The notes beneath the pieces are model-generated. The model was not told where the DNA came from and did no database searches. It saw only the letters and a program-made list of their open reading frames with translations. Below are positions 1,535-37,886 of a stretch of DNA of 64,000 nt, in pieces. The DNA comes from an uncultured Actinomycetes bacterium (GTDB taxonomy: Bacteria; Actinomycetota; UBA4738; HRBIN12). The position numbers and the translations under genes were made by a program. How positions within the stretch are numbered: the stretch's first letter is position 1; each line of letters begins with the position of its first letter. Where the stretch lies: the NCBI GenBank assembly GCA_963731925.1, contig CAVSXK010000024.1, forward strand, positions 64,147-128,146. Direction: 5' to 3'.

Positions 1535-2608
1535 GTGATCGTCGGTAGCATGGGACGGATGCGCAGAGCCCTGGCCGTGCTCGCCGTGCTCGCGGTCGCG
1601 GGGTCGGTGATCCACTCCGAGGCGACCGAGCAGCCCGGACCCTGGGCGCGCCACCGCGTCGAGCACCGCGGTCCGGCGGCCACGCGATACGTGATCGGTG
1701 CCGCCGGCGACATCGCGTGCCAGAACCAGGCCTTCGGTCCGGGATCGCCCGCCAACTGCCAGTACGACGAGACCGCCGACCTCATCGAGCGCGGGGACCT
1801 CGCCGAAGTGCTCCTGCTCGGTGACAACCAGTACGAGCGGGGAACGTACGCCGCGTACACGAGCTACTTCGATCCCACGTGGGGACGGTCGATCTCGAAC
1901 CTGTCGCCCGCACCCGGCAATCACGAGTACGCGAACGATCCCTCGTCCAGTCCCCGGGGCTACTTCCGCTACTTCGGGAACCGCGTGAAGGGTCCGGACG
2001 GGCTCGGCTACTACTCGTTCGACCTCGGTGCGTGCCCCGACGACCCGTGCTGGCACCTGATCTCGTTGAACTCGGAGCTCTGCTTCGCGGCCGGCGGCTG
2101 CGGGCCGGCCGCGGATCCGTCCGACCCCGGCCCGGGCAACCGCATGCACGCCTGGCTGGCGGCCGACCTCGCCGAGCACCCCGACGCCGAGTACCCCTGC
2201 ACGCTCGCGTACTGGCACCACCCCCGGTTCTCGTTCTCGACCGGGAGCGGCGCGACGAGCGCCGTCGGCCCGCTCTGGCACCTGCTCTACGAGGCGCGGG
2301 CCGACGTGGTCCTGAACGGCCATTCGCACAACTACCAGCGCTGGCGGCCCATGGATCCGGACGGGGACCTGGACCGTGTCGCGGGGATCCGGGAGTTCGT
2401 GGTGGGAACGGGGGGCCGGAGCCACTACGCGCTGCCGAGCGGCACCGCGCCCGAGAACCTCCTCTCGGCACAGGCCGACGCGTTCGGCATCCTCCGACTG
2501 ACGCTCAAGGCAGAGGCCTATCGGTGGAGATGGGTGTCGGCGGCCGGCCAGCCCGCGTTCGACGACGCCTCCGACCACGGCGTCCGGTGCGTGCGAACTA
2601 GCCCTTGA
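1535..2608 (+). CDS. secreted metallophosphoesterase (calcineurin-like phosphoesterase)
   Basis: 357-aa ORF with signal peptide and metallophosphatase motifs (GDIAC, GDNQYE, GNHEY, NGHSHNYQR). Confidence 0.8.
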   Translation: MIVGSMGRMRRALAVLAVLAVAGSVIHSEATEQPGPWARHRVEHRGPAATRYVIGAAGDIACQNQAFGPGSPANCQYDETADLIERGDLAEVLLLGDNQYERGTYAAYTSYFDPTWGRSISNLSPAPGNHEYANDPSSSPRGYFRYFGNRVKGPDGLGYYSFDLGACPDDPCWHLISLNSELCFAAGGCGPAADPSDPGPGNRMHAWLAADLAEHPDAEYPCTLAYWHHPRFSFSTGSGATSAVGPLWHLLYEARADVVLNGHSHNYQRWRPMDPDGDLDRVAGIREFVVGTGGRSHYALPSGTAPENLLSAQADAFGILRLTLKAEAYRWRWVSAAGQPAFDDASDHGVRCVRTSP

Positions 2609-3404
2609 CGCCCGTGAGCGTCACGCCCTCGACGAACACCCGTTGCGCGAGGAAGAACAGGACGATCACCGGGACCATGAACAGCACCGATGCGGCCATC
2701 GTCAGGTTCCACTGGACGTGGAACTGCGACTCGAACTCGGACAGCGCGATCGAGAGCGTCCACTGGTCGGGGTTTTCCACGAGGTAGAGCAAAGGCGAGA
2801 AGAAGTCGTTCCAGGAGTAGAGGAACTGGAACAGCGCAACCGCCGCGATCGCCGGCTTCGCGAGCGGAACGATGACCCGCGTCATGATCTGGAACTCGCT
2901 CGCCCCGTCGACGCGCGCAGCGTCCGAGAGGTCCTCCGGGATCGTGAGGAAGAACTGTCTCAGCAGGAAGATCGTGAACGCGTCCCCGAAGAACAACGGC
3001 ACGACGAGCGGCTTGATCGACCCGATCCAACCGAACCGCACGAAGATGATGTACAGGGGCACGATCGTCGCCTGGACGGGCAGCATCAGGGTCGAGAGCA
3101 CCAGGAGGAAGACGCCCTGCCGGCCGCGCCAACGGAGCCGCGACAAGGCGTAGGCAACGGGGATGCAGGACACGATCACGCCGATCGTGGCCAGGGCCGC
3201 GATCCGGAACGTGTTCCACGTGTACCGGAGGAGCGGGATCTCCCGGAACACATCCGAGAAGTTCGACCAGCGGAACGGCCGCGGCCACAGCGCCGGGGTG
3301 AGCGCCTGCCGGTCCGTCATGAGCGCCGTGAGGACGATCAGGACCACCGGCAGCAAGAAGACCGCAGAGACCGCGATCAACACGGTGTGGTTCGCCACGC
3401 CCAT
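2598..3404 (-). CDS. carbohydrate ABC transporter permease (MalG/UgpE-like)
   Basis: C-terminal 268 aa of the 594-aa ORF: six TM helices and the EAA-type signature (DAARVDGASEFQIMTRVIVPLAKPAIA). Upstream in-frame sequence is R-rich garbage, so start is placed at ATG 3404. Confidence 0.85.
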   Translation of the reverse strand: MGVANHTVLIAVSAVFLLPVVLIVLTALMTDRQALTPALWPRPFRWSNFSDVFREIPLLRYTWNTFRIAALATIGVIVSCIPVAYALSRLRWRGRQGVFLLVLSTLMLPVQATIVPLYIIFVRFGWIGSIKPLVVPLFFGDAFTIFLLRQFFLTIPEDLSDAARVDGASEFQIMTRVIVPLAKPAIAAVALFQFLYSWNDFFSPLLYLVENPDQWTLSIALSEFESQFHVQWNLTMAASVLFMVPVIVLFFLAQRVFVEGVTLTGVKG

Positions 3405-3496: not shown

Positions 3497-4420
3497 CTAT
3501 TTGAACCCACCCGCCTGATAGTGGACCCAGTGCCTGGACGAACGGATCAGCAGCGCGGTGCAGGCGAGCGTGAGCAGCAGCAGCATCCAGGCCATCGCCG
3601 ACGCGTAGCCCATCCGGAAGTCGGAGAAGCCCTTCAGGTACAGGTAGATCGAGTAGAAGAGCAGCGACCCCTGTGGGCTCCCGACGGCAGCCGAGGCCTC
3701 CTCCGTCGCCTGGCCGGAGACGGCGAAGCTCGCGACGTACGCCTGCGTGAAGTACTGGAAGCCGGCGATGACGCCGATCACCAGCGTGAAGAACAGCACC
3801 GGCGACAGCGACGGCAAGGTGACGTGTCGGAACTTCTGCCACGGGCTCGCCCCCTCGATGTCCGCGGCCTCGTAGAGCTGCCTCGGGACGTCGAGGAGTC
3901 CGGCCAGGTAGATGATCATCGTCTGTCCGACCACCCACAGGCCGAGGAACAACAGCCCCCATTTCGACCAGAAGGGATCGTAGAACCACAGCGGCGGGTT
4001 CTTGATCCCGATGCCGGAGAGCAACTGGTTCACCGGTCCGGTGGCCGGATTGAAGATCACGAAGAACGCGAGTGCCGCCGCCACCGGGGGCGCCATCGTC
4101 GGGAGGAACAGGATCGTCCGATAGCCCTTCACGCCACGGCGAGGCCTGGTCAGCAACATCGCCGTCCCGAGTGCGACCAGCATCGAGAGCGGAACGCCCA
4201 CGCAGATCATCCAGATCGTGTTCCGCATCGCCTGCCAGAACTGCGGGTCCTTCGTGAACATGAACCGATAGTTGTCGAGCCCGACGAAGCTCGGGGTGGA
4301 GAGCAGGTCGTAGTTCGTGAACGAGTAGTACAGGCTCGCGAGGGCCGGATAGAGGATGAAGACCGAGAACCCGATGATCCACGGCGACATGAACAGCGCC
4401 GCGGTGGTGTAGCGCCTCAC
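3497..4420 (-). CDS. carbohydrate ABC transporter permease (MalF/UgpA-like)
   Basis: Real part of the 458-aa ORF: ...ALFMSPWIIGF... and EAA loop (EAADIEGASPWQKFRHVTLP). The conserved N-terminal pattern RRYTTAALF-SPWIIGF shows the start is upstream of ATG 4390. GTG 4420 chosen; CTG 4483 is also possible. Confidence 0.8.
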   Translation of the reverse strand: MRRYTTAALFMSPWIIGFSVFILYPALASLYYSFTNYDLLSTPSFVGLDNYRFMFTKDPQFWQAMRNTIWMICVGVPLSMLVALGTAMLLTRPRRGVKGYRTILFLPTMAPPVAAALAFFVIFNPATGPVNQLLSGIGIKNPPLWFYDPFWSKWGLLFLGLWVVGQTMIIYLAGLLDVPRQLYEAADIEGASPWQKFRHVTLPSLSPVLFFTLVIGVIAGFQYFTQAYVASFAVSGQATEEASAAVGSPQGSLLFYSIYLYLKGFSDFRMGYASAMAWMLLLLTLACTALLIRSSRHWVHYQAGGFK

Positions 4421-4508
4421 CGTGGCGCGACGGGCCGCCGGCCTCCTCTTGGGGAGGGGCCGGCGACCCGTCGACGAGGTCAGGGCCTGTGCGATCCCGC
4501 CTCCGTCC

Positions 4509-7053: not shown

Positions 7054-7164
7054 CGAACGCTCGTTGATCGCCTTCAGCAGGCTCGGCGTGCCGGCGGCGA
7101 ACGGGTGAACGGCCGTTTGGTGCGCCCCCTCTAGTTCGGTTCGCTCTCGTCTCGAGTAGCTCTA

Positions 7165-7184
7165 GTTCGGAAACTTTCCTAACT
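7165..7184. promoter_or_regulatory. operator-like palindrome GGAAACTTTCC (gttcGGAAACTTTCCtaact) in the ROK / eda-kdgK divergent intergenic region
   Basis: An AT-rich 11-bp inverted repeat in a 70% GC genome. A 15-nt block is identical (as reverse complement) to 11726-11740. Lies ~30 nt upstream of the eda start and ~115 nt upstream of the ROK start. Confidence 0.55.
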
Positions 7185-7210
7185 ATTCTCGCCGATGCTA
7201 CGCTCGACCC

Positions 7211-7855
7211 CTGAGCGCAGTCAAGGCACCCCGTCCGGACACCACGATCTTCGATACCCGCAGGGTTCTCGCGGTCGTACGGTTCCGAGATCCGTGCGAC
7301 CTCGACGCGATCGTCGAGGCGATACGTCGTGGCGGCATCGACCTCGTGGAGGTGACGGCGGACACGCCCGGCGCGATCGACGCGGTGCGACGAGCTGCAC
7401 GGGCCGGGGCCCCGGTGGGGGCGGGGACGATCGGCTCGGCGACGGAAGCGCGGGCGTTCGGCGAGGCGGGAGCCGCCTTCCTCGTGAGCCCCGGGGTGAT
7501 GCCGGAGGTCGTACGGGTCGCCGTCGAGCTGGGCATCCCTGCGGTGCCGGGGGCGCTCTCCCCGACCGAGATCGCGACGGCCCAAAGAGCCGGGGCAACC
7601 GCCGTGAAGCTCTTCCCGGCGAGCCTCGGCGGTCCCGGCTACCTGCGGGTCCTTCGAGGCCCGTTCTCCGACGTGCGTTTCGTCCCGACCGGAGGCATCG
7701 AGCCCGCCGACGTGAGGTCGTGGTTGGACGCGGGCGCCACGTGCGTCGGGCTTGGTTCCGCACTCGTCGGGGCCACCCCTCCCGCAACGCCCGGCGACCT
7801 CCGAGCGCTGACCGAGCGTGCACGTCGCGTCGTGCGGCTCGCGGGGCGGCGATGA
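7211..7855 (+). CDS. eda: 2-dehydro-3-deoxyphosphogluconate (KDPG) aldolase / KHG aldolase
   Basis: Track ORF 7346..7855 (GTG) is truncated. The same frame upstream reads ...TTIFDTRRVLAVVRFRDPCDLDAIVEAIRRGGIDLVEVTADTPGAIDAV..., aligning to the Eda N-terminus. The only in-frame candidate start is CTG 7211, so the start is uncertain or affected by an indel. Ends in an ATGA overlap with kdgK. Confidence 0.75.
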   Translation: MSAVKAPRPDTTIFDTRRVLAVVRFRDPCDLDAIVEAIRRGGIDLVEVTADTPGAIDAVRRAARAGAPVGAGTIGSATEARAFGEAGAAFLVSPGVMPEVVRVAVELGIPAVPGALSPTEIATAQRAGATAVKLFPASLGGPGYLRVLRGPFSDVRFVPTGGIEPADVRSWLDAGATCVGLGSALVGATPPATPGDLRALTERARRVVRLAGRR

Positions 7856-8760
7856 CGCCGGTTCCCGATGTCATCGCGCTGGGTGAGACCATGCTCTCGC
7901 TCATCGCCGTCGGGGTCCCGCTCGCCGAGGCATCCGAGCTCCGCGTGACGCACGGCGGTTCCGAGAGCAACACGTGCGTCGGGCTCGCTCGGTTGGGACT
8001 TCGGGCCGCGTGGGTGAGCCGTCTCGGTTCGGATCAAGCCGGGGATCGGATCGCTTCGGATCTCGGTCGCGAGGGCGTCGACCTCCGGTGGGTGCGCCGC
8101 GACCCAGAACGGCCCACCGGGCTGATGCTGCGCGGAACGTCGGGCGCGCCGGCCCGGTACGAGCGCGCCGGCTCCGCGGCGAGCGCGCTCTCCCCGAGCG
8201 ATCTCGACGGCGTTCCGGTGGAGGATGCCGGGGCCGTGATCACGAGCGGGATCACCGCCATGCTCGGTGCGGGTCCGCAGGAAACGGCGATCGCGCTGCT
8301 GGAACGCGCCCGCGGGCTCCGCGTGGTCGATCCGAACCTGCGTCTCGGCCTCTGGGGCTCGGACCGAGCCGGCGAGCTCGTCCGGCCCCTGCTCGAGCGC
8401 GCCGACCTCGTGCTCGGCGGGGAGGCCGAGCTCGCCGCGCTCGTCGGGGGCATCGGGCGCGAGCTCGCCGAGCGATGCCGCGACCTCGGACCGAGCGAGG
8501 TCGTCCTGAAGCTCGGCGCGGACGGGGCGGCGGCGTTCGACGAGGAGGGCAGGTGGTGCGAGGTGCGTCCGCCGCGGAGCGCCGAGGTCGACCCGGTCGG
8601 CGCCGGCGACGCGTTCGACGCCGGGTATCTCGCTGCCCGGCTGCGAGGGGCGTCGGTGGAGGACGCCCTCCGGCAGGGGGCGCGTTGCGGCGCCGGCGTG
8701 GCGGGGATGGTCGGAGACACCGCGGGCTTCCCCACGCTCGCCGAGATCGAAGGAGGGTGA
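7852..8760 (+). CDS. kdgK: PfkB-family sugar kinase, 2-dehydro-3-deoxygluconokinase-like
   Basis: MTPVPDVIALGETMLSL..., GSESNT, C-terminal DPVGAGDAFDAGYL (PfkB anion hole). Translationally coupled to eda (ATGA). Confidence 0.8.
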   Translation: MTPVPDVIALGETMLSLIAVGVPLAEASELRVTHGGSESNTCVGLARLGLRAAWVSRLGSDQAGDRIASDLGREGVDLRWVRRDPERPTGLMLRGTSGAPARYERAGSAASALSPSDLDGVPVEDAGAVITSGITAMLGAGPQETAIALLERARGLRVVDPNLRLGLWGSDRAGELVRPLLERADLVLGGEAELAALVGGIGRELAERCRDLGPSEVVLKLGADGAAAFDEEGRWCEVRPPRSAEVDPVGAGDAFDAGYLAARLRGASVEDALRQGARCGAGVAGMVGDTAGFPTLAEIEGG

Positions 8761-8762
8761 CG

Positions 8763-9158
8763 ATGACGAGAGACGCCCGGCAGCCCGAGGGCGTGGCCCG
8801 ACCGGCGCTTCCGTACAGCCCGGTCGTCGTGACCGGCGATCTGGTCTTCACCGCGGGACAGGTCGCACTCGATGCCCGGGGCGACCTGGTCGCCGGAGGG
8901 ATCGAAGCGCAGACCGCGCAGGTGCTCGACAACCTCGCGCGCTGTCTGGACGGCGTGGGCTGTTCGATGGAGGACGTCGTGAAGGTGACGGCGTTCCTGG
9001 CCGATCTCGCCGATGCCGACGGCTACAACCGTGTCTACGCGACACGGTTCGCCCCGCCCTACCCGGCTCGCTCGACGGTCGGAGCGCGGCTGGCCGACAA
9101 CCTGCTCGTCGAGATCGAGGCGATCGCGCGACGGGCCGGCGACGGAGCCAACCTCCTA
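8763..9158 (+). CDS. ridA: RidA/YjgF family reactive-intermediate (enamine/imine) deaminase; no in-frame stop
   Basis: MTRDARQPEGVARPALPYSPVVVTGDLVFTAGQVALDARGDLVAGGIEAQTAQVLDNL...LVEIEAIARRAG matches RidA over ~130 aa. The frame then reads through antisense of the convergent DSD1-like gene until 10448. The stop was presumably lost to an indel; the end coordinate is approximate. Confidence 0.65.
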
Positions 9159-10427
9159 GAAGAACGTCGCGATGGCGTCGACGACCCGGTCGCCGTCGTC
9201 CAGGACCGGGAGTACGCGCCAACGATCGAGCGCCGAGCAGGGGTGCGAGATCCCGCACATGAGGAGGTCGCCGACCCCCAGGGAGACGCCGCTCCCGACG
9301 CGGCAGTACGCGTGTTGGTCGTCGAGCGAGGTGATCTCGATCCGTCCGTCGATGCGCTCCACCTCTCCCCCGGCTCGTCGAACGAGGGTCGGCGTCGGAT
9401 ACCCCCGGTCGAACGGCACGTCGCGTCGTCCGAGACCCACCAGCGCGAGCCCTCGTTCGGGGGTGGAGAGCACGGCCCCCCAGGCTTCGAGCGTGGGATG
9501 GAAGCGGCGCTCGAGAGGCTCGTTCGCGAACGGCGAGGAGCGGGCGTCCGGGCCCGAGTCGTGGATCAGGTAGGAGCCGCAACGCAGGAGCACGGTCGAC
9601 GGCCCGGACCCGCCGCCGGCCAGCCGGTCGACGACGAGGTCGAAGAACAGGCTCCCCCCGGCCGTCACGATCGGCTCGCGCGCGAACGCACCCTCCTCGA
9701 GCAAGCGCATCGCCAAGCCACCAAGGTCGTCGAGGAACGCCTCCACCTGACCGAGGCTCGCCGGAGATCGATCGTGCGCGATCGTCCCTTCGTAGCCGGC
9801 GACCCCGGCGAGATCGAGCAGCTTCGAGCGTTCGACGGCGCGGGCCACCTCGATCGCCTCCGGCAGGCTCCGGCATCCCGTTCGACCCGCCCGGTGACCC
9901 AGCTCGACGAGGACCGAGAGAGGCCGATCCTCGCGGGAGTCGCGGACCCCCTCTTCGAGGAGGGCGACCCCACGGGTCGAATCGACCAGGCACACGAGCT
10001 CGGTCGTCTCCTCCGCGATGTCGGCGGCGGCCCACCGGAGCGACCCCGGGTCGGTGAGCTCGTTCGCGAGCAGCACTCGTCGCACCCCGGCCGCGCGCAG
10101 CACCCGCGCCTGTGTGGCCCCCGCGGCGCTCATCCCCCAGCCGCCCGCGTCGAGCTGCTTCCACCAGAGCTGGGGAGCCATGGTCGTCTTGGCGTGCGGC
10201 GCGATCGACACCCCATGCTGCCCGCAGTACCCGGCCATCAACCGGACGTTGTGCTCGAGCGCCGTCCGACGCAGCACGAGGACCGGTGGGACGAGGTCCG
10301 CGAACGTCCACCCCTGGTCCCCCGCCTCGAGCAACGGGACGGGCTCCGCGATCGTGGGGAATCCCTTGGTCGTGGACCCGACCCGGACCTCGGCCAGCAG
10401 CGCCTCGGCCCCGGCCGCGCTGGTCAT
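9156..10427 (-). CDS. DSD1-family PLP-dependent enzyme (alanine-racemase-fold N-domain plus D-serine-dehydratase-like C-domain); candidate amino-sugar-acid dehydratase
   Basis: 423 aa from ATG 10427 (MTSAAGAEALLAEV...). PLP-lysine region HAKTTMAP typical of the fold-type III DSD1 / D-threo-3-hydroxyaspartate dehydratase family. Start overlaps the GH4 stop (ATGA). Confidence 0.8.
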   Translation of the reverse strand: MTSAAGAEALLAEVRVGSTTKGFPTIAEPVPLLEAGDQGWTFADLVPPVLVLRRTALEHNVRLMAGYCGQHGVSIAPHAKTTMAPQLWWKQLDAGGWGMSAAGATQARVLRAAGVRRVLLANELTDPGSLRWAAADIAEETTELVCLVDSTRGVALLEEGVRDSREDRPLSVLVELGHRAGRTGCRSLPEAIEVARAVERSKLLDLAGVAGYEGTIAHDRSPASLGQVEAFLDDLGGLAMRLLEEGAFAREPIVTAGGSLFFDLVVDRLAGGGSGPSTVLLRCGSYLIHDSGPDARSSPFANEPLERRFHPTLEAWGAVLSTPERGLALVGLGRRDVPFDRGYPTPTLVRRAGGEVERIDGRIEITSLDDQHAYCRVGSGVSLGVGDLLMCGISHPCSALDRWRVLPVLDDGDRVVDAIATFF

Positions 10428-11692
10428 GAACGGAAGCGCGGCAGATGATCGCGGTTCGCGTCGAGGATCGCGGTGAGCAGGCCCGAGGCGGTCGGGTAGT
10501 CGGGCACGAGCGGGTTCGACAGCAGCGCCCTCAGCGCCAGCACGCGGTCGCCGCTCGTCGCCGCGCGGATCGTGAGCCGCTCGTACGCCTTGGCGTGCTG
10601 CACCAGCCCGAGCATCTCCTCCGAAAGCGGCGCGACCGGCAGGGGGTGAGCGCCTTCGGCATCGATCGTCGCTGCGACCTCGACGACGTCGTCGAGGGGG
10701 AGGTTGGGGATCGCGCCGGCGTTCCGGACGTTGACCACCTGCACGTCGCCGGTCCCGGCCGCGAGCGACGCAACGAGCTCCGCGGCGGCCTCGCTGTAGT
10801 AGGCGCCGCCGCGTCGCTCGAGGAGCTCGGGCTTCTCGGTCAGGTTGGGGTCCCGGTACATCTCGAGCAGCCGCGCCTCGATCTCCATGACCTCTTCGGC
10901 CCGCGTCCTCCCACGGCGTTGCTCCTCGACGATCTCTCGCGTCAGGTAGTAGTAGCGGAGGTAGTACGACGGGACGGCCCCGAGAGCCCGGATCAGCTCG
11001 GATGGCATGTCCGTCTCGCGCGAAAGCTCTGGGAGGTCGGTCTCGAGCAGCGCGGGGAGTCGGTCGACTCCGTCGACCATCACCGCACGCACCCACGAGA
11101 GGTGGTTGAGCCCGACGTGCTCGAGCTGCACCCGCTGCGGCTGCACGTCGAACCGGGTCGCGAACCGGCGCTGGAGGTTGATCGCGACGTTGCACAGACC
11201 GAGCGCCCGATGGCCCTCGTCGATCAGGGCCTGGGTGACCATGCCCGTCGGGTTCGTGAAGTCGACGAACCATGCCCCGGGCGCGCCGCGGCGAGCCGTG
11301 AGCTCCGCGAGCTCGAGCACGACGGGGATCGTCCGAAGCGCTTTGGCGAACCCACCCGGGCCGGTCGTCTCCTGCCCCACGCACCCGAACCGGGGCGGGA
11401 TCGTCTCGTCGGACAGGCGCGCGGCCTGACCGCCGACCCGAAGCTGGACGATCACGAAGCCCGCGCCCTCGAGGGCTTCGTCGCGATCGGTGGTGAGGAT
11501 CAGGTGACCCCCGTACCCGGCACGGTCGAGCATCCGGCCCGCGAGCCCACCGACGACGTCGAGCCGATCCCTGTCCACGTCGAGCAGGGCCAGCTCGTCG
11601 ACGGGGAAGCGCTCGATGCGGCGGACGAAGCCCTCCACGAGCTCGGGGGTGTAGGTGCTCCCGGCCCCGACCACGGCTACCTTCACACCCAT
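10424..11692 (-). CDS. glycoside hydrolase family 4 (NAD+/Mn2+-dependent 6-phospho-glucosidase / alpha-glycosidase)
   Basis: 422 aa from ATG 11692: MGVKVAVVGAGSTYTPELV (Rossmann NAD site), GH4 signature region ...CNVAINLQRRF..., and a typical C-terminal domain. Confidence 0.85.
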   Translation of the reverse strand: MGVKVAVVGAGSTYTPELVEGFVRRIERFPVDELALLDVDRDRLDVVGGLAGRMLDRAGYGGHLILTTDRDEALEGAGFVIVQLRVGGQAARLSDETIPPRFGCVGQETTGPGGFAKALRTIPVVLELAELTARRGAPGAWFVDFTNPTGMVTQALIDEGHRALGLCNVAINLQRRFATRFDVQPQRVQLEHVGLNHLSWVRAVMVDGVDRLPALLETDLPELSRETDMPSELIRALGAVPSYYLRYYYLTREIVEEQRRGRTRAEEVMEIEARLLEMYRDPNLTEKPELLERRGGAYYSEAAAELVASLAAGTGDVQVVNVRNAGAIPNLPLDDVVEVAATIDAEGAHPLPVAPLSEEMLGLVQHAKAYERLTIRAATSGDRVLALRALLSNPLVPDYPTASGLLTAILDANRDHLPRFRS

Positions 11693-11717: not shown

Positions 11718-12791
11718 ATGAATTGGTTAGGAAAGTTTCCTGACCCATTCCTGGCCGAGATCGCCGGGCAGGCAGAGGCGATTCGCCGCGCCGCGGGCTC
11801 ACTCGAGGAGCAGGTCCCCACCCTCGACGCGCTGGGCGAAGCGGCGGGGCGAGGTGGCGGCGTCGTGTTCACCGGCATGGGCAGCTCGTACGACGCGTGC
11901 TACCCGGCGGTGAACGAGCTGGCCGCTCGAGGCGTGCCGGCGCTCCACGTCGACGCGGCCGAGCTCCTGCATTTCCGGACCAACGCGCTGTCGTCGGACA
12001 CCGTGCTCGTCGTGGTGAGCCAATCGGGCGAGAGCGCCGAGATCGTGCACCTCGCCGCATCGCTGAATGCCCGCCCGGACCCGCCGCTGATGACGTCGCT
12101 CACGAACGGGCTCGCGAACGAGCTCGCGGAGCGGGCCGACCTTCGACTCGACACCCGCGCGGGCCCGGAGACCGGCCCGTCGACCATGACGTTCGCGGCC
12201 TCGATGGCGCTCCTCGCGGCGGTGGCGCCGATCCTCGGCGGGGACACGACCGCCGATGCCACCGCGCGCGCTCGAACGGGGGCGGAGCGGGCGGCCGGCG
12301 CGGTCGAGGCGTTCATGGAGGTGGGCGACGCCACGGGCTCGTTGCTCGAGGACGTCGTCGACGGGCGCGAGATCCTGGCGGTGCTCGGCCGAGGCTCGGC
12401 GCGGGCGGCCGCCGAGATGGGGGCGCTGACGTTGAAAGAGAGCGGGGTGATGGCCGAGTCGTTCGCGACGGCGAGCTTCCGCCACGGACCGTTCGAGCTC
12501 GCGGGGCCGGACATGGCGGCGATCATCCTGTCGACCGAGGAGCAGACCCGAACGCTGGATCTCGGCCTCGCGGCGGATCTGGCGAGCACGGGCGCATCCG
12601 TCGCCGTGATCGCGCCCGGCGAGGAGGTTCCCGCCGGTTGTGCCCGGATCCACCTCCCCGGCCTCGACCGCCTGTTCTCTTCGACGGTCGGGGTCGTGCC
12701 GCTCCAGTTGCTCGCGTGGCGGCTCGCGCTGCGCCACGGCCGCGCCCCCGGCGTCTACACACGCGCGTCGAAGGTGACCACACGTGAGTGA
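11718..12791 (+). CDS. double SIS-domain sugar-phosphate isomerase/deaminase (GlmS-isomerase-domain-like; GlmD/NagB-II/AgaS/FrlB family)
   Basis: 357 aa starting MNWLGKFPDPFLAEIAGQ.... SIS motifs VFTGMGSSYDA and VVVSQSGESAE. C-terminal second SIS domain (RHGPFEL). The paralog at 15626 has the same N-terminal register. Confidence 0.85.
   Translation: MNWLGKFPDPFLAEIAGQAEAIRRAAGSLEEQVPTLDALGEAAGRGGGVVFTGMGSSYDACYPAVNELAARGVPALHVDAAELLHFRTNALSSDTVLVVVSQSGESAEIVHLAASLNARPDPPLMTSLTNGLANELAERADLRLDTRAGPETGPSTMTFAASMALLAAVAPILGGDTTADATARARTGAERAAGAVEAFMEVGDATGSLLEDVVDGREILAVLGRGSARAAAEMGALTLKESGVMAESFATASFRHGPFELAGPDMAAIILSTEEQTRTLDLGLAADLASTGASVAVIAPGEEVPAGCARIHLPGLDRLFSSTVGVVPLQLLAWRLALRHGRAPGVYTRASKVTTRE
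11726..11744. promoter_or_regulatory. second copy of the GGAAAGTTTCC operator-like palindrome (gttaGGAAAGTTTCCtgac)
   Basis: Reverse complement shares 15/15 nt with 7169-7183. Lies 34-52 nt upstream of the GH4 start on the opposite strand. Overlaps codons 3-9 of the SIS gene, which use unusually AT-rich codons (tta gga aag ttt cct). Confidence 0.55.
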
Positions 12792-13398
12792 ACGGCTACG
12801 GACGGCGCTCACGTTCGACGCGGAGCACCCGGACCGGCCGAACGCCTCCGCGGGAGCCGCCGAACGGATCCTGGACGTCCTCGAGGATGCGGGGGCCCGT
12901 GCGACGTTCTTCCTCCAGTCGCGGTGGGCGATGGCGAACCCCGAACTCGCTCGTCGGATCGCAGACGCCGGCCACCTGGTCGGCAACCACTCGACCTACC
13001 ATGCCCGCATGACGCTGTTCTCCGACGACGGCATCCGGGTCGACGTGCGACAGGCCGGCGACACCATCGCCGAGCTGGCGGGCGTCGACCCGCGCCCCTG
13101 GTTCCGGTGCCCGTTCGGAGACGGCCACGACGATCGCCGCGTGCTCGACGTCCTCGAGGAGCTCGGGTATCGGAACGTGCACTGGCACGTGGAGTCCGAG
13201 GACTGGGAACCGTGGAGGACGCCGGCGGAGATCGGCCGAGCGAGCGTGGAGGGCGCGATCGCGCACGGCGACGGTGCCGTCGTCCTGCTCCACACGTGGC
13301 CCCGAGCGACGGCTGCGGCCCTGCCGATCGCGCTCGAGGGGTTGGAGCGCGCGATGGCCTCGCTGGTCACGATCGACGAGCTCGAGGAGCTGCCGTGA
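12784..13398 (+). CDS. polysaccharide deacetylase (NodB homology domain, carbohydrate esterase family 4)
   Basis: CE4 motifs: TFDAEHPD, ATFFLQSRWA (resembles the TFFL... motif), LVGNHSTYHARM (His-His metal site), RCPFGDGHD. GTG start overlaps the SIS stop. Confidence 0.8.
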   Translation: MSERLRTALTFDAEHPDRPNASAGAAERILDVLEDAGARATFFLQSRWAMANPELARRIADAGHLVGNHSTYHARMTLFSDDGIRVDVRQAGDTIAELAGVDPRPWFRCPFGDGHDDRRVLDVLEELGYRNVHWHVESEDWEPWRTPAEIGRASVEGAIAHGDGAVVLLHTWPRATAAALPIALEGLERAMASLVTIDELEELP

Positions 13399-14414
13399 GC
13401 CGGCCCGCGGTGCTCGCGATCGACGGCGGAGGATCGAAGATCGACGCGGTCCTGATCGATCGGGACGGAGCGATCGCCGGGAGCGCTCGCGTGGAGCCTT
13501 CGGACACCGACGGCCAACGGGCGGGCGACCTCGCGGCGATCGGGCTGGCGGTCAAGGCGGCATGCCGTGACGCGCGGATCGACACCGACGAACTGCCCGT
13601 CGCGCGCCTCGGCGTGTTCTGTCTCGCCGGCGCGGATCTTCCCGCCGACGACCGAAGGATCCTCCGTTCGCTCGAGCCGCACCGGTGGACCACCGACACG
13701 ATCCTTCGCAACGACACGTTCGCGGTGCTCCGTGCCGGAACCAACCGGACCTGGGGGGTGGGGGTGGTCTGCGGGTTCGGGACCAACTGCTCGGCGGTGG
13801 CTCCCGACGGTCGGACGTATCGCTTCCCCGCCCTGGGATGGATCGCCGGCGACTGGGGTGGCGGTGCCGACATCGGAGAGGCCGCGATCTGGCACGCCGT
13901 GCGATCCGAGGACGGCCGAGGCGAGCGGACGTCCCTGGCGAGCGCCGTGCCCGCCCACTTCGATCTCCGCCGGCCGAGACAGGTCATGGAGGCGATGTAC
14001 TTCGGCCGTTTGAGCGTGAGCCGGATCGCCGAGCTCCCTCCGTTGGTGTTCGAGGCGGCGGCGGACGGCGACGCCGTCGCCCGATCGATCGTCGATCGCC
14101 AGGCGGACGAGGTCGTGTCGATGGCGACGGCCGCGATCCGACGCCTGCGGATGACGGAGCTCGACGTCCACGTGGTCCTGGGCGGCGGCATCTTCCGCAA
14201 CACGTTCGTACCGTTCCTCGAGCGGGTCGACGACGGGATCCATCGCTCGGCCCCGGCGGCCAGCGTGACCGTCCTCGGTGCACCACCGGTGGTGGGCGCG
14301 GCCCTGCTCGGACTCGACCGCCTGCGCGCGTCCCGCACCGCGAAGGACCGCCTGCGGACCACCTTGACCAAGGATCCGGTCGGCAACAGACTCGATGGCA
14401 AGCGGCGGAGGTAG
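13395..14414 (+). CDS. BadF/BadG/BcrA/BcrD-type ATPase, N-acetylglucosamine-kinase-like sugar kinase
   Basis: N-terminal AIDGGGSKIDAVL (actin-fold phosphate-1 loop). VVCGFGTNCSA. C-terminal VLGGGIF. GTGA overlap with the deacetylase stop. Confidence 0.8.
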   Translation: MSRPAVLAIDGGGSKIDAVLIDRDGAIAGSARVEPSDTDGQRAGDLAAIGLAVKAACRDARIDTDELPVARLGVFCLAGADLPADDRRILRSLEPHRWTTDTILRNDTFAVLRAGTNRTWGVGVVCGFGTNCSAVAPDGRTYRFPALGWIAGDWGGGADIGEAAIWHAVRSEDGRGERTSLASAVPAHFDLRRPRQVMEAMYFGRLSVSRIAELPPLVFEAAADGDAVARSIVDRQADEVVSMATAAIRRLRMTELDVHVVLGGGIFRNTFVPFLERVDDGIHRSAPAASVTVLGAPPVVGAALLGLDRLRASRTAKDRLRTTLTKDPVGNRLDGKRRR

Positions 14415-14416
14415 AG

Positions 14417-15607
14417 ATGGCGCGGATCGTCCTCGATGGTGTGACGAAGGTCTTCGGGACCGACGTGGTGGCGGTCGACGACGTGTCGCTCGAGATCGCC
14501 GACGGCGAGTTCATGGTCCTCGTCGGTCCATCGGGCTGCGGGAAGTCCACGATCCTTCGCATCCTCGCCGGACTCGAGGAGGTGACGGCCGGCGAGGTGT
14601 ACATCGGCGAGAGGCAGGTCACGGACCTCCCACCGAAGGCGCGGGACATCGCGATGGTGTTCCAGAACTACGCGCTCTACCCACACATGACCGTCGAGCA
14701 GAACCTCGGGTTCGGTCTCAAGCTCCGCAGGATGCCGAAGGACGAACGAGGCCACCGGGTGCACGACGTCGCGAAGATCCTCGGTCTCGACGGACTGATG
14801 GAGCGCAAGCCGGGTGAGCTGTCCGGCGGCCAGCGTCAGCGCGTGGCGATGGGTCGAGCGATGGTTCGAGAGCCGGTCGCGTTCCTGATGGACGAACCAC
14901 TGTCGAACCTCGACGCGAAGCTCAGGGTCCAGATGCGCGGGCAGTTCGCCAAGCTTCACGATCGCCTGCGCACGACGACGGTGTACGTGACGCACGATCA
15001 GGTCGAAGCGATGACGCTCGGACAGCGCGTGGCGGTCCTGCGCGACGGCATGCTGCAGCAGGTCGACACGCCGCAGCGTCTGTATCAGTACCCGGCGAAC
15101 CTGTTCGTCGCAGCCTTCATCGGATCGCCGCCGATGAACCTCGTGGGTGCCGAGGTTCGGGGAGGCGCGGTCCGCTTCGCGGGCTTCGAGATCCCTTTGC
15201 CGGCCGACCGGGCCCCGGACGGCCTCGAGGGTCGCGAGCTGATCCTCGGGATACGGCCATCGGATCTGGAGGACACGGCCGTGTGGACGGGACAGGACCT
15301 GCCCACGATCACCGTCCTCGCGGACGTCACCGAGGACCTCGGCTCCGAGGTGAACGTGCTGTTCACGGTGGACGCACCGCCCGTAGAGACCGACGAGACG
15401 CTCGCCGCGACCGAGCAGGACGAAGGCGAGATCCCTCTCCTCGCCGAGGAGCACCGCGCCGTCTTCTGCGCGCGGGTGGACCCCCGGACCTCGTGCGGGC
15501 CCGGGACGCCGATCCGCCTCTCGGTCGACCCACGCCGGTTCCACTTCTTCGATCCCGAGACGGGGCAGGCGCTCACGACCGAGCCCGCCGCGGTAGCCAG
15601 CGCCTGA
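14417..15607 (+). CDS. msiK: sugar ABC transporter ATP-binding protein (MalK/UgpC/MsiK family)
   Basis: Walker A GPSGCGKST, signature LSGGQRQRVA, Walker B FLMDEPLSNLD, H-loop VTHDQ. C-terminal TOBE/MalK regulatory domain. GGAGG SD 7 nt upstream of ATG. Confidence 0.9.
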   Translation: MARIVLDGVTKVFGTDVVAVDDVSLEIADGEFMVLVGPSGCGKSTILRILAGLEEVTAGEVYIGERQVTDLPPKARDIAMVFQNYALYPHMTVEQNLGFGLKLRRMPKDERGHRVHDVAKILGLDGLMERKPGELSGGQRQRVAMGRAMVREPVAFLMDEPLSNLDAKLRVQMRGQFAKLHDRLRTTTVYVTHDQVEAMTLGQRVAVLRDGMLQQVDTPQRLYQYPANLFVAAFIGSPPMNLVGAEVRGGAVRFAGFEIPLPADRAPDGLEGRELILGIRPSDLEDTAVWTGQDLPTITVLADVTEDLGSEVNVLFTVDAPPVETDETLAATEQDEGEIPLLAEEHRAVFCARVDPRTSCGPGTPIRLSVDPRRFHFFDPETGQALTTEPAAVASA

Positions 15608-15625: not shown

Positions 15626-16700
15626 ATGAGATCGCTCGAAGGCTTCTCCGACCGCTTCCTCGGCGAGATCGCGGGCCAGCCCGACGCGATGCGACGAGCC
15701 GCGGCGGCCCTCGTCGACCAGCGCGAGGCGCTCGACCGGATCCGCGAAGCCAGCGCGGCCTCGCGCACCATCGTCTTCACCGGCATGGGGGGCTCGTACG
15801 ACGCCTGCTACCCGGCGGTGAACGACCTCGCGGCGCGGGGCGTCCCCGCATTGTTGGTAGATGCCGCGGAGGTCCTGCACTTCCGAAGGCCGATCCTGAA
15901 CGCGCAGACGCTCGCCGTCGTCGTCAGCCAGTCCGGCGAGAGCGCCGAGATCGTGCGCCTGGTGAACGAGCTCGCCAAGCAACGCACGCGGCCGTTCGTG
16001 GTCGCGATCACGAACGGCACCAACAACGACCTGAGCCGGCGGGCTGACATCGAGCTCGACACGTGGGCGGGACCGGAGTCCGGGCCCTCGTCGATGACCT
16101 TCGCGGCCTCGATGACCACGCTCTCCGGTCTGGCCCGGCTCCTCGCCGGCGACAGCGTCGACACCGCGGTCGATCGAACCCGGACGGCGGCGGAGGGAGC
16201 CGCGCGCTCGGCCGAACGGCTCCTCGACGACCCCGAGGCGTTCGCGACCGATCTCGAGGCGTGGCACGGGGGTCGGGACGTGATCGTGCTTGCTCGGTCG
16301 CGGGCCGGCGCGGGCGGCGACCGAGCTCGGAGCGCTCGTCCTGAAGGAATCCGGCGTGATGGCCGAGTCGCTGGAATCCGGTCTGTTCCGTCACGGCCCG
16401 TTCGAGCTCGCCGGCCCGAACATGAGCGCGATCGTCATGGCGACCGAGCCGGAGACCCGGCGGCTCGACCTCGGGCTCGCGGCCGACCTCGTCGACGCGG
16501 GGAGCGCCGTCATGGTGGTCACGCCCGACGGCGAGGCGCCGAAGGGAGCGCGGCCCGTCGCGACGGGCTATCTGGACCGAGCGCTGATGTCGGCGGTCGC
16601 GGTGATCCCCACGCAGCTCCTCGCCTGGCGGCTCGCGGGCGCGCGGGGACGCACGCCCGGCGCGTACACCAGAGCGTCGAAGGTCACGACCCGCGAATAG
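15626..16700 (+). CDS. double SIS-domain isomerase/deaminase paralog; frameshifted near 16293
   Basis: N-terminal ~220 aa in frame of 15626 (MRSLEGFSDRFLGEIAGQ..VFTGMGGSYDA..VVVSQSGESAE). C-terminal ~135 aa in frame of 16290 (LGRGPARAATELGALVLKESGVMAES...RASKVTTRE), co-linear with the 11718 paralog. A single indel lies at ...VIVL|ARS. Confidence 0.7.
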
Positions 16701-25029: not shown

Positions 25030-26424
25030 TCAGAGCCCGGCGGCCTTCGAGACCTCTGAGAGCGACTCCTCGAGCGCGAACGCGAGCCGCGGCAGATCGG
25101 GCATGCCGTCGTAGTCGCCGGTCAGGCCGAACGCCATCGTGCCACCGATGGACGTGCAGGCGATCGAGAGCGCCGAGTTCTCGCCGAGCGGGAGCGAGGG
25201 GTACTGCGCGACCAGCTTGGCGCCGGCCATGTACATCGGCTGGGGCGGGCCGGGGATGTTCGAGACGACCAGGTTGAACCACGGTCCCCGGCTCGCCAGG
25301 CGCGCGGCCGCGGCGAGCAGGCCACCCGGTGCGTACGCGCCGAGCCCGATGATCGCGTCGGCGCTCATGGCCATCATCGAGTCCTTCAGATAGCTCGTCC
25401 CCTCCCGCACGACGGCGAGGCGTCGCTTCGGACCCATCGCGCCGACCGGCAGGTCGATGAACGCCGGCGCCACACGGTTGCCGAGCGAGGCGTCACGTCC
25501 CCCCTGCACCGAGACCGGCACCATCACGCGCAACGTCCTGCCGCGCGTCGGTTCCCTCCGGTCGCGCAGCAGCCGATGCAGGGCGCCACCGACGACCGTG
25601 AGCACGACGTCGTTCACCGTCCCGCCGAGGACGTCCTTGATCTCCTTGAACCGCTGGAGCGGCGCGTCGGCGATCGCGAACCGGCGGTTCGGACCGATCT
25701 GCACGTCGAGCGGTGACGTCGGCCGCGCGCCCATGTCGACGATGCTGCGGAACCCGGACAGGACCGTGCCCACGTCGAGCGCCGCCAGGGCGGGCGATCG
25801 GCGAACCGTGTCGACGCCGTTCATGAGCGCCTGGACCGGATGGGAGAACAGCGATTCGGTGGCCTCGCGCAGCAGATCTCGTGACGACGGTTCGGGTTCG
25901 GGCTCCCAGGCGGGAGGCGGAGGTTCCTCCCGTGGCTCAGGCGAGAGGTCGAACAGCGCCGCCGTGAGGTGCATGCCCGACAGCCCGTCGATCATCGCGT
26001 GGTGCACCTTCATGAGCGTCGCGACGTGTCCGTCCTCCAGGCCCTCGATCACGTAGAGCTCCCAGAGCGGCTTCGACCGGTCGAGCGGCCGGGAGAGGAT
26101 CCGCTGGACCTGCTCGGCCAGCTCCACCCGGCCCCCCGGGTGCGGGAGCGCCGCGCGACGGATGTGGAAGTCCAGGTCGAACGCGGGGTCATCGACCCAG
26201 ACCGGCAACGCGAGCCCGAACGGCACCATCTTGACCTTCTGCCGCAGACGCGGCGCCAGGTGCAGGCGCGAGGCGAACACCGACACGACGTCCTCGAATC
26301 GCAGCCTGCCGTCGGGCCGGGTCGTCGGATCGAGCACGGACAGCCCGGCGACGTGCATGTGCATCGCCGGTCGCTCCAGGTACAGGAACGACGCGTCGAG
26401 CGCGGTGAGGCGTTCGGTGGCCAT
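25030..26424 (-). CDS. wax ester synthase / acyl-CoA:diacylglycerol acyltransferase (WS/DGAT)
   Basis: 464 aa. Catalytic HHxxxDG motif (HHAMIDGLSG). Typical WS/DGAT length and C-terminal domain. Confidence 0.9.
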   Translation of the reverse strand: MATERLTALDASFLYLERPAMHMHVAGLSVLDPTTRPDGRLRFEDVVSVFASRLHLAPRLRQKVKMVPFGLALPVWVDDPAFDLDFHIRRAALPHPGGRVELAEQVQRILSRPLDRSKPLWELYVIEGLEDGHVATLMKVHHAMIDGLSGMHLTAALFDLSPEPREEPPPPAWEPEPEPSSRDLLREATESLFSHPVQALMNGVDTVRRSPALAALDVGTVLSGFRSIVDMGARPTSPLDVQIGPNRRFAIADAPLQRFKEIKDVLGGTVNDVVLTVVGGALHRLLRDRREPTRGRTLRVMVPVSVQGGRDASLGNRVAPAFIDLPVGAMGPKRRLAVVREGTSYLKDSMMAMSADAIIGLGAYAPGGLLAAAARLASRGPWFNLVVSNIPGPPQPMYMAGAKLVAQYPSLPLGENSALSIACTSIGGTMAFGLTGDYDGMPDLPRLAFALEESLSEVSKAAGL

Positions 26425-27081: not shown

Positions 27082-27576
27082 ATGCAGAAGATCACGCCGT
27101 TCCTGTGGTTCGACGACAAGGCCGAGGAGGCCGCCGAGCACTACGTGTCCGTGTTCAACGCCAGGCCCGGAACCGCTGGCGGTTCGGAGATCCTCGAGGT
27201 CTCCCGTTACGGCGAGGGCGGCCCGGGCAAGCCCGGCACGGCGATGACCGTGTCCTTCCGCCTGGAGGGTCAGGAGTTCACCGCCCTGAACGGCGGGCCG
27301 GACCACAACTTCACCGATGCCGTCTCGTTCCTCGTGAGCTGCGAGACGCAGGAGGAGGTCGACGCTTTCTGGTCGGCGCTCTCCGAGGGCGGCGAGGAAG
27401 GCCCGTGTGGCTGGCTCAAGGACCGGTACGGCCTGTCCTGGCAGATCATCCCGACCGCGCTGTCGGAGCTGCTCGGCGACCCCGACCCGGGGCGGTCGCA
27501 GCGGGCCCTGCAGGCGATGCTCCAGATGCGCAAGATCGACATCGCGGGCCTGCGGCGCGCCGCCGAGGCCGCCTAG
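27082..27576 (+). CDS. VOC-family protein (PhnB / 3-demethylubiquinone-9 methyltransferase-like glyoxalase fold)
   Basis: MQKITPFLWFDDKAEEAAEHYVSVF...GWLKDRYGLSWQIIP, characteristic of the PhnB-like VOC group. Confidence 0.8.
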   Translation: MQKITPFLWFDDKAEEAAEHYVSVFNARPGTAGGSEILEVSRYGEGGPGKPGTAMTVSFRLEGQEFTALNGGPDHNFTDAVSFLVSCETQEEVDAFWSALSEGGEEGPCGWLKDRYGLSWQIIPTALSELLGDPDPGRSQRALQAMLQMRKIDIAGLRRAAEAA

Positions 27577-27596
27577 CGATCGCTCGCGGTCCCGCC

Positions 27597-37807: not shown

Positions 37808-37886
37808 CCGCGCGCCTCGGGCAGGCACGGGAGGCGGCCCATCATCGTCCGACGGGAACGCGGCCTGGAACACCAGGTCGTCCGCC

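Follow-up and report, generated by a model that had tools for sequence, protein, structure and literature searches.

An OngC-like deaminase coupled to a GH4 glycosidase in an uncultured actinomycete: a predicted glucosaminate route within a CsnR-type chito-oligosaccharide locus

What is the substrate of a pyridoxal phosphate (PLP)-dependent enzyme whose gene is coupled to that of a glycosidase and faces the genes of a sugar-acid pathway? The question is raised by a locus in a 64-kb stretch of DNA from an uncultured Actinomycetes bacterium (64,000 nucleotides of contig CAVSXK010000024.1, assembly GCA_963731925.1; here called the window). According to the original prediction, the PLP enzyme would turn a 2-amino-2-deoxy-aldonate into 2-keto-3-deoxygluconate (KDG), which the products of the adjacent kdgK and eda genes would carry further. 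Having compared the locus with its relatives and with known systems, we hold it to be rather likely that the module is the lower half of 2-amino-2-deoxy-aldonate catabolism, most likely of D-glucosaminate (GlcN1A), and that it belongs to a CsnR-type chito-oligosaccharide regulon. As judged from homology, the locus is probably an actinobacterial variant of the known OngC-type pathway, serving oxidised chito-oligosaccharides. The G+C content of the window is about 70%, and genes were therefore called by third-position GC bias (GC3) and then confirmed with family models (Pfam and NCBIfam). The five genes of the module are present at these positions:

7211 to 7855, plus strand: eda, 2-keto-3-deoxy-6-phosphogluconate (KDPG) aldolase (PF01081, TIGR01182); start uncertain, CTG at 7211 or ATC at 7247
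7852 to 8760, plus strand: kdgK-like PfkB sugar kinase gene (PF00294)
8763 to 9159, plus strand: ridA (PF01042), with the intended stop TAG at 9157-9159
9156 to 10427, minus strand: fold-type-III PLP enzyme of 423 aa, predicted glucosaminate ammonia-lyase (PF14031 and PF01168)
10424 to 11692, minus strand: GH4 glycosidase of the ChbF/6-phospho-beta-glucosidase lineage, csnH-like (PF02056 and PF11975)

Two longer open reading frames (ORFs) were rejected as high-GC artefacts: one of 521 aa (7195-8760) is a run-on of the kdgK frame and one of 824 aa (7974-10448) a run-on of the ridA frame. As read from the sequence, the GH4 stop overlaps the start of the PLP gene in an ATGA at 10424-10427 on the minus strand, and the eda stop overlaps the kdgK start in another ATGA at 7852-7855; ridA begins 2 nt after the kdgK stop and is convergent with the PLP gene on the opposite strand. 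The translational coupling to GH4, the convergence, the second ATGA and the position of ridA directly behind a kinase and aldolase pair had all been described correctly in the original prediction, but the pair itself had been given as kdgK-eda, whereas the actual order is eda-kdgK-ridA.

To which family does the PLP enzyme belong? It matches PF01168 (E = 1e-8) and PF14031 (E = 7e-12), both over the gathering scores, and this confirms the fold-type-III superfamily. The narrower label of DSD1 family, under which the enzyme was first described, proved imprecise: chicken DSD and D-threo-3-hydroxyaspartate (D-THA) dehydratase (3ANU and 3WQC) align with its N-terminal domain alone, at 19-21 bits and E = 2e-3 to 5e-3, and no close kinship to DSD1 or D-THA dehydratase proper (yeast Dsd1p, chicken DSD, Delftia D-THA dehydratase) was found. 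D-threonine and 3-hydroxyaspartate aldolases reach 48-82 bits. The closest solved structure is 3GWQ ("D-serine deaminase"; 247 bits over residues 30-423), which was solved in a structural-genomics project and presumably comes from Burkholderia xenovorans. NCBIfam holds no model for this deaminase family, the sole match being BhcC with 83 bits against a cutoff of 690. Lysine K80 in the N-terminal H-x-K motif (APHAKTTMAP) is invariant in 10 diverse homologues, and from the family we infer that it binds PLP. Equally invariant is S394-H395-P396-C397, a His-x-Cys metal site of the dehydratase type; this site is His/Cys in the dehydratase and His/Asp in D-threonine aldolase (PMC4401734).

A published pathway offers a parallel. 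Jiang et al. described in 2022 the ong cluster of Pseudoalteromonas prydzensis ACAM 620, which consumes the products of chitin oxidised by lytic polysaccharide monooxygenases (LPMOs) (PMC9537276). OngB, an enzyme of the D-aminoacylase type, deacetylates the N-acetylated aldonic acid left by LPMOs (GlcNAc1A), and GlcN1A is then turned into KDG and NH3 by OngC, a 45.4-kDa "D-amino acid deaminase" of PLP fold type III (PMC9537276). In the same work the RidA protein OngD is essential and its role is left unexplained, KdgK is essential and makes KDPG, and Eda-type aldolases are proposed for the last step (PMC9537276). The paper and its supplements report ong clusters solely in Gamma- and Betaproteobacteria, in genera which include Ralstonia and Klebsiella (PMC9537276). 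The supplements give locus tags only, and as stand-ins for P. prydzensis OngC we used the deaminases of ong-type clusters on Ralstonia (L005) and Klebsiella pneumoniae (L006) replicons, which were found by tblastn of plasmid records with the window PLP enzyme as query. In the Ralstonia cluster the deaminase and a sugar kinase are divergent from an RpiR regulator, an amidohydrolase, RidA, a permease and Eda. In that of K. pneumoniae the deaminase is divergent from a D-aminoacylase, RidA, an SSS symporter, a 2-keto-3-deoxygalactonate (KDGal) kinase, a 2-keto-3-deoxy-6-phosphogalactonate (KDPGal) aldolase and RpiR; here enzymes of the DgoK/DgoA type (2730-4188 of L006) replace KdgK and Eda. The window PLP enzyme shares 37% identity with the Ralstonia deaminase and 34% with that of K. 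pneumoniae over about 90% of the protein. Together with K80, H395 and C397 and with the OngB, KdgK, Eda and RidA genes found near its homologues, this homology lends support to the proposed course from the amino-sugar acid through KDG to KdgK and Eda.

How would the reaction proceed? The PLP enzyme would bind GlcN1A as an external aldimine and eliminate the metal-activated C3 hydroxyl, a reaction which we take to be that of EC 4.3.1.9, glucosaminate ammonia-lyase. The enamine released would tautomerise to 2-imino-3-deoxygluconate, RidA would speed the hydrolysis of this imine to KDG and NH3, the PfkB kinase would phosphorylate KDG to KDPG, and Eda would split KDPG into pyruvate and glyceraldehyde-3-phosphate. 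The analysis shows the gene identities, the couplings, the conserved synteny, the operator boxes and the homology to ong-cluster deaminases; the substrate, the role of RidA and any use of a phosphorylated intermediate are predictions. For Eda, the match to the subfamily of 2-keto-4-hydroxyglutarate (KHG) and KDPG aldolases (TIGR01182, 163.2 bits) lies above the cutoff of 156.05, and both the catalytic glutamate E62 (VEVT) and the Schiff-base lysine K148 (VKLFPA) are invariant in the alignment. The kinase matches PF00294 with 153 bits; in NCBIfam it comes nearest to KDG/KDGal kinases, with 146 and 132 bits, far under the cutoffs of 440 and 400, and its best characterised solved relative is the KDG kinase of Thermus thermophilus (1V19, 127 bits). 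RidA matches PF01042 with 109 bits, and arginine R103 of its PARS motif, an active-site residue, is invariant; its score against TIGR00004 is 93.2 bits, under the cutoff of 106.25.

The Salmonella route, in which D-glucosaminate enters by a phosphotransferase system (PTS), also ends with KDPG, which the Eda-type aldolase DgaF cleaves to pyruvate and glyceraldehyde-3-phosphate. Its deaminating enzyme DgaE acts on glucosaminate-6-phosphate and has an unrelated PLP fold, whereas the window locus has no PTS and does have a predicted KDG kinase, which implies that the unphosphorylated acid is deaminated. The original prediction rightly set its route apart from that of Salmonella, but the route is not new: that through OngB, OngC, OngD and KdgK is published (PMC9537276). 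Taken alone, the deaminase-RidA-KdgK-Eda segment is therefore an already published pathway with no new chemistry. Like the ong clusters, the window combines an "amino acid deaminase" of PLP fold type III, about 420 aa long, with RidA and a predicted KDG kinase, joined by KDPG aldolase in some species, and the predicted flow from GlcN1A to KDG and KDPG likewise needs no prior phosphorylation. What is new is the soil-actinobacterial version, joined to a chitosan-uptake gene cluster and with GH4 and a deacetylase of family CE4 in place of GH20 and OngB. We found no actinobacterial ong cluster in Jiang et al. and its supplements (PMC9537276), in a 2025 paper on OngB or in a wider literature search.

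Is the arrangement of these genes a matter of chance? The closest relatives of the PLP enzyme are all from metagenomic Actinomycetota, with 56-99% identity among the matches listed. We compared ten related actinobacterial loci (L001, L002, L007-L012 and L014, with L013, which lies on the same contig as L010). The GH4 and PLP genes, with RidA convergent to them, recur in the same order in all ten, accompanied there by the SIS/CE4/kinase/ATPase and ROK/ABC (ATP-binding cassette) operons, and the ATGA between GH4 and the PLP gene is kept in most. This arrangement is not due to chance. A PfkB gene precedes ridA in L007-L011 and L014, and in L008-L011 and L014, which represent several independent lineages, the whole trio of eda, kdgK and ridA is found again. 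One of the relatives, L012, has a gene for a sugar aminotransferase of the DegT/DnrJ/EryC1 type, oppositely oriented, between its GH4 and PLP deaminase genes (7725-8960).

The module is embedded in a locus of 14 kb, with a ROK/ABC operon on the minus strand and a SIS-CE4-kinase-ATPase operon on the plus strand around it. The original prediction took no account of this setting, whose CsnR boxes, CE4, kinase, SIS proteins and ABC system point to where the substrate comes from. Its further features, including two operator-like sequences, are:

2598 to 3404, minus strand: ABC permease, csnG-like; GC3-supported ORF, whose syntenic gene in L001, L002, L010 and L011 is PF00528 (BPD_transp_1)
3497 to 4460, minus strand: ABC permease, csnF-like, start approximate; GC3-supported ORF, syntenic gene in relatives PF00528
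4509 to 5855, minus strand: sugar-binding lipoprotein, csnE-like, N-terminus MMKRWLVVLAVFGLIAAC; syntenic genes PF01547/PF13416
5878 to 7053, minus strand: ROK-family regulator with N-terminal helix-turn-helix (HTH), CsnR-like (PF00480 ROK and HTH domains)
7168 to 7180, no strand: CsnR-box-like operator CGGAAACTTTCCT in the divergent ROK/eda promoter region, with 1 mismatch to AGGAAANTTTCCT
11718 to 12791, plus strand: protein with two SIS domains, GlmS isomerase-like (PF01380, two matched stretches), predicted glucosamine-6-phosphate (GlcN-6-P) deaminase/isomerase
11729 to 11741, no strand: perfect CsnR box AGGAAAGTTTCCT in the divergent GH4/SIS region
12784 to 13398, plus strand: cytoplasmic CE4 (NodB-type) deacetylase (PF01522)
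13395 to 14414, plus strand: BadF/BcrAD-type sugar kinase, N-acetylglucosamine (GlcNAc)/N-acetylmuramate (MurNAc) kinase-like, csnK-like (PF01869)
14417 to 15607, plus strand: MsiK/UgpC-type ABC ATPase (PF00005 and PF17912; PRK11650, 443 bits, above cutoff)
15626 to 16700, plus strand: second SIS paralogue, frameshifted, placed by tblastn with the L001 orthologue

The two operator-like sequences would tie the module to the regulation of chitosan uptake. The consensus operator of csnREFGHK in Streptomyces lividans is AGGAAANTTTCCT (PMC6097792), and the window holds exactly two matches to it, both in divergent promoter regions. Two matches were seen in none of 100 shuffles, and 0.25 per window are expected by chance. 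The box at 7168-7180 is kept in place in nine of the ten related loci, the contig of L007 ending short of this region, and the perfect box has an equally perfect counterpart in the same position in every one. In L001, L002 and L012, which are without eda and kdgK, the second box stands between ridA and the ROK gene. The perfect box reaches into the SIS gene (MNWLGKFPD), over codons 4-8, and lies about 37 nt upstream of the GH4 start; given this position and the GH4/SIS gap of only 25 nt, a single operator probably governs both operons. L012 carries three perfect CsnR boxes. A box with one mismatch upstream of the ong-like clusters of Amycolatopsis was set aside, as it lies inside infC and is probably there by chance.

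In S. lividans and S. coelicolor, csnREFGHK encodes the ROK repressor CsnR, the ABC system CsnEFG, the GH4 enzyme CsnH and the kinase CsnK, and serves the uptake of chitosan oligosaccharides (Dubeau et al. 2011, reviewed in PMC6097792). By gene families and order the window resembles it, with a ROK gene heading an ABC operon (solute-binding protein and two permeases) and with GH4, a sugar kinase and the AGGAAANTTTCCT operator also present. It differs in that GH4 and the kinase lie in separate, divergent operons and in the addition of the PLP deaminase, RidA, KdgK, Eda, CE4, two SIS proteins and an MsiK-like ATPase of its own. The only transporter at the locus is this oligosaccharide ABC system of the CUT1 type, and there is no aldonate or amino-acid permease there; the best solved relative of the binding lipoprotein is the oligosaccharide-binding protein 4R9F (151 bits). 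Compared with the ong system, an ABC importer stands in place of TonB receptors and an SSS symporter, a ROK/CsnR-box system in place of RpiR, a cytoplasmic GH4 in place of the periplasmic GH20 OngA, the CE4 deacetylase in place of the D-aminoacylase OngB, and a Gram-positive soil actinomycete in place of Proteobacteria.

On these grounds we propose that the ABC system (binding protein, two permeases and the MsiK-like ATPase) would import oxidised or ordinary chito-oligosaccharides, from which the cytoplasmic CE4 would strip the N-acetyl groups. The BadF-type kinase and the ChbF-like GH4 would then split the disaccharide, and the two GlmS-like SIS proteins would convert GlcN-6-P to fructose-6-phosphate. 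Because the PLP enzyme is translationally coupled to GH4, the latter is predicted to free GlcN1A from chito-oligosaccharides oxidised at C1 (GlcN/GlcNAc-GlcN(Ac)1A), which an LPMO or an oligosaccharide oxidase produces. The GH4 protein scores 346 bits with 5C3M, a 6-phospho-beta-glucosidase, and 339 bits with 1S6Y; it is 37% identical to Escherichia coli ChbF over its full length, and its motifs VVGAGSTYTPE (the NAD-binding GxGS) and GLCN and GLNH (metal-site Cys and His) align with those of ChbF. In the chb system ChbF is a GH4 monoacetylchitobiose-6-phosphate hydrolase and ChbG a deacetylase, and the order of logic is the same, a deacetylase acting before GH4 on a disaccharide of the chitobiose type. 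There are differences: the chb deacetylase belongs to the YdjC family and not to CE4, ChbF cleaves GlcN-containing chitobiose phosphate whereas the predicted aglycone of the window GH4 is an aldonic acid, and chb uptake is by PTS. With an ABC importer instead of a PTS, the BadF-type kinase is left as the source of any phosphorylation.

The remaining enzymes fit this picture at the level of families. The SIS protein matches the NCBIfam models for GlmS, NagB-II and GlmD, all under cutoff, and its solved relatives are GlmS isomerase domains; the BadF-type kinase matches NagK_SO3507 with 77 bits, also under cutoff, and among solved structures it stands closest to 8ZO3, a MurNAc/GlcNAc kinase. For the kinase, SIS and CE4 proteins alike, the nearest solved structures are enzymes of amino sugars or glycans. 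The CE4 protein has an altered motif 1, TFDAE against the canonical TFDDG, in which a metal-binding Asp is replaced by Ala; the change is invariant in six clade members (the window, L001, L002 and L010-L012), while the HSxxH, RCPFG and LLH motifs are retained. It looks like a distinct CE4 subfamily and may be the substitute for OngB. Readings of the locus as MurQ-type peptidoglycan recycling or fructosamine deglycation were rejected, the best models of the SIS protein being GlmS, NagB-II and GlmD and the CsnR boxes pointing to chitosan.

The wider family of the PLP enzyme tells more about its probable function. A scan of 185,579 species genomes gave 80 loci, the nearest genome homologues, nearly all of them actinobacterial. 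The nearest of all are metagenome-assembled genomes (MAGs) of uncultured Actinomycetes, with 55-59% identity; the other loci, at 48% or less, are mostly from cultured actinomycetes, with a few from Chloroflexi, Dormibacterota and Proteobacteria. Within 10 kb of the PLP homologue an OngB-like amidohydrolase is present in 44 of the 80 loci, a KdgK-like kinase in 38, RidA in 33 and Eda in 23, at least two of these four in 41, and GH4 in three; an OngB-like, KdgK-like or Eda gene is found in 52. Tight operons of the form kdgK<>DSD-OngB-Eda occur in Nocardia (L025), Glutamicibacter (L087), Kribbella (L092) and Psychromicrobium; in Actinosynnema, Lentzea and Amycolatopsis the core has no Eda beside it, and that of Actinosynnema reads RidA-IclR-PfkB<>DSD-Amidohydro_3 (L023, 7577-12735). 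The clusters of cultured Actinobacteria (among L019-L092) thus unite a PLP deaminase, an OngB-like amidohydrolase and PfkB, often with RidA and/or Eda and frequently with IclR, which suggests that clusters of the OngC/OngB/KdgK/RidA/Eda type are common in cultured Actinobacteria. In a neighbour-joining tree of the PLP enzymes (100 bootstraps) the GH4-linked clade is monophyletic in 97 replicates and falls within the actinobacterial radiation; it joins the Pantoea type in four. In the loci of this clade there is no OngB-like gene and no GH20.

Several observations weigh against the pathway as we propose it. The window PLP enzyme is not an orthologue of OngC, as judged from three features: it is without the 6-aa deletion and 7-aa insertion common to the Ralstonia and Klebsiella deaminases and to 3GWQ, its clade joins the proteobacterial OngC type in none of the 100 bootstraps, and identity is only 34-37%. 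Its route is drawn from homology and gene context, the chemistry being a prediction for the whole clade. In vitro, D-Ser and D-Thr are deaminated by OngC as well (PMC9537276), and the family is thus promiscuous. Homologues from Pantoea and Klebsiella variicola with 40-43% identity lie beside amino-acid ABC transporters, RidA and IclR. In L001, L002 and L012 neither kdgK nor eda stands beside ridA, and KdgK, RidA and the SIS proteins all score under the NCBIfam equivalog cutoffs. The 64-kb window yielded no homologue of OngB and no LPMO, chitinase, chitosanase or sugar oxidase, and the source of the aldonic acid is therefore surmised. Lastly, this assembly has lesions in the ridA stop, the eda start and the second SIS frame: ridA has no in-frame stop before 10448, and there is no ATG, GTG or TTG between the in-frame stop at 7163 and a GTG at 7346, although the conserved N-terminus of Eda precedes 7346. 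These lesions may mean that the strain has an impaired module, or they may reflect an imperfect assembly.

Could the chemistry be as proposed, with another substrate? The enzyme might take another 2-amino-aldonate, epimeric or modified (D-galactosaminate or D-mannosaminate, for instance), or glucosaminate imported in free form, with GH4 serving ordinary (GlcN)2 only and the coupling reflecting co-regulation. The best models of the kinase are bifunctional KDG/KDGal kinases and Eda also matches the KDPGal aldolase model, all under cutoff, and the DgoK/DgoA-type enzymes of the K. pneumoniae ong cluster are a hint of a galacto-configured substrate or of promiscuity in the lower pathway. In addition, the Streptomyces csnREFGHK cluster has its GH4 without any deaminase (PMC6097792), which shows that a GH4 of this kind does not need an aldonate aglycone. 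However, Eda does exceed the cutoff of the KHG/KDPG-aldolase model, the CsnR boxes and the ChbF-like GH4 indicate gluco-configured chito-oligomers, and the sole transporter of the locus is of the CUT1 oligosaccharide type, with no permease for aldonates or amino acids. We regard this alternative as rather unlikely.

Or could the sugar genes be incidental? The PLP enzyme and RidA might be a generic dehydratase of D-serine and D-threonine (beta-hydroxy-D-amino acids) and its 2-aminoacrylate deaminase, with KdgK and Eda in an unrelated hexuronate or gluconate route. The family is named "D-serine deaminase-like" in sources and 3GWQ was deposited as a D-serine deaminase; the activity of OngC on D-Ser and D-Thr and the Pantoea and K. 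variicola loci, which have no sugar genes near, speak for the same view. Yet the ATGA to GH4 is conserved in most relatives, ridA shares one operon with eda and kdgK in several lineages, conserved CsnR boxes precede both operons, and 52 of the 80 nearest homologues have an OngB-like, KdgK-like or Eda gene nearby. One locus touches the question directly: in an uncultured actinobacterial MAG (L061, 6434-12765) a binding protein of the polar-amino-acid ABC type, 71% identical to that of K. variicola, adjoins the deaminase, Eda and KdgK. An amino-acid ABC link is thus found together with Eda and KdgK, and by analogy the "amino-acid ABC + RidA + deaminase" loci of Pantoea and K. variicola may be glucosaminate rather than D-serine loci. 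A comparison of conserved residues is neutral here: of the 88 columns with a conservation of 93% or more among OngB-linked homologues, the GH4-linked clade retains 77, its 11 substitutions being mostly conservative, and the amino-acid-ABC clade retains 77 as well, so that the columns neither support nor refute a shift in specificity. That the enzyme is a plain D-amino-acid dehydratase seems to us improbable.

Is the module, then, decaying in this genome, the lesions being pseudogenisation and not errors of assembly? We give this little credence. At the 3' end of ridA (9145-9159) there is one extra base, near 9148-9155, just before the TAG of a CTAG palindrome in which, in relatives, the stops of the convergent ridA and PLP genes overlap. 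The window reads GACGGAGCCAACCTCCTAG, where L007 has GACGAGGCAAACAC-CTAG and L008 and L009 have GACGGAGCGAGCGT-CTAG. Through this 1-nt insertion ridA loses its stop and its frame runs antisense across the whole PLP gene to 10448. The second SIS paralogue has a 4-nt insertion (GCTC) near 16287, and tblastn with the intact L001 orthologue (357 aa) splits at 16287-16291. Against decay, the ORFs are still strongly biased towards G or C at third positions, and their proteins are 88-99% identical to those of intact relatives; L007, L008 and L009 are without the extra base and have a RidA of 131 aa, intact also in L007, the closest relative (a short-read assembly with 98% nucleotide identity). The nearest genome relatives carry MFD-series MAG names and are presumably long-read assemblies, a kind of data in which indel errors are plausible. 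The eda start is a separate case. A canonical start is likewise missing in L008 and L009, and its loss is therefore not an error of this assembly; it could be counted in favour of decay, but three assemblies have kept the N-terminal protein sequence of Eda ahead of 7346. The initiator Met of Eda in L010 and L011 aligns with the Thr (ACC/ACG) of "TTIFD" at about 7241, and translation in the window may begin at the CTG at 7211 or the ATC at 7247.

Elsewhere the window holds a gene for a WS/DGAT wax-ester synthase (25033-26424), two ECF-type sigma factors with a C-terminal DUF6596 (27405-28817 and 52100-53266), an 828-aa protein whose major facilitator superfamily domain is confined to the C-terminal half (32641-35124) and a pair of genes for type-I phosphodiesterases (36122-39155). 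Searches of the 64 kb for tRNA genes and Rfam families gave no match.

What would the preferred reading, a glucosaminate module within a CsnR-type regulon, mean? It suggests that an uncultured soil lineage has rebuilt the upper part of the pathway with GH4 and CE4 under control of the CsnR type. In its boldest form, which we put forward only tentatively and as something short of likely, the locus would be an undescribed Gram-positive route for aldonic chito-oligosaccharides made by LPMOs or oxidases: a GH4-deaminase operon, CE4, a kinase and eda-kdgK-ridA would be wired into a CsnR regulon, GlcN1A would be released straight to a non-orthologous analogue of OngC, an altered-motif CE4 would replace OngB, and cultured Actinobacteria, from which the pathway had been thought missing, would widely carry simpler versions with OngB. 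In that case no GH4 before this ChbF-like enzyme would have been shown to act on a disaccharide ending in an aldonate. Soil actinomycetes are rich in LPMOs, and each oxidative cut in chitin leaves an aldonic-acid end, for which the only described route is that of marine Gammaproteobacteria, reported as limited to Proteobacteria. If confirmed, our reading would provide new GH4 and CE4 enzymes for oxidised chito-oligosaccharides and would give RidA a physiological partner in the breakdown of amino-sugar acids; it would also carry the oxidative chitin pathway over to the chief degraders of chitin on land.

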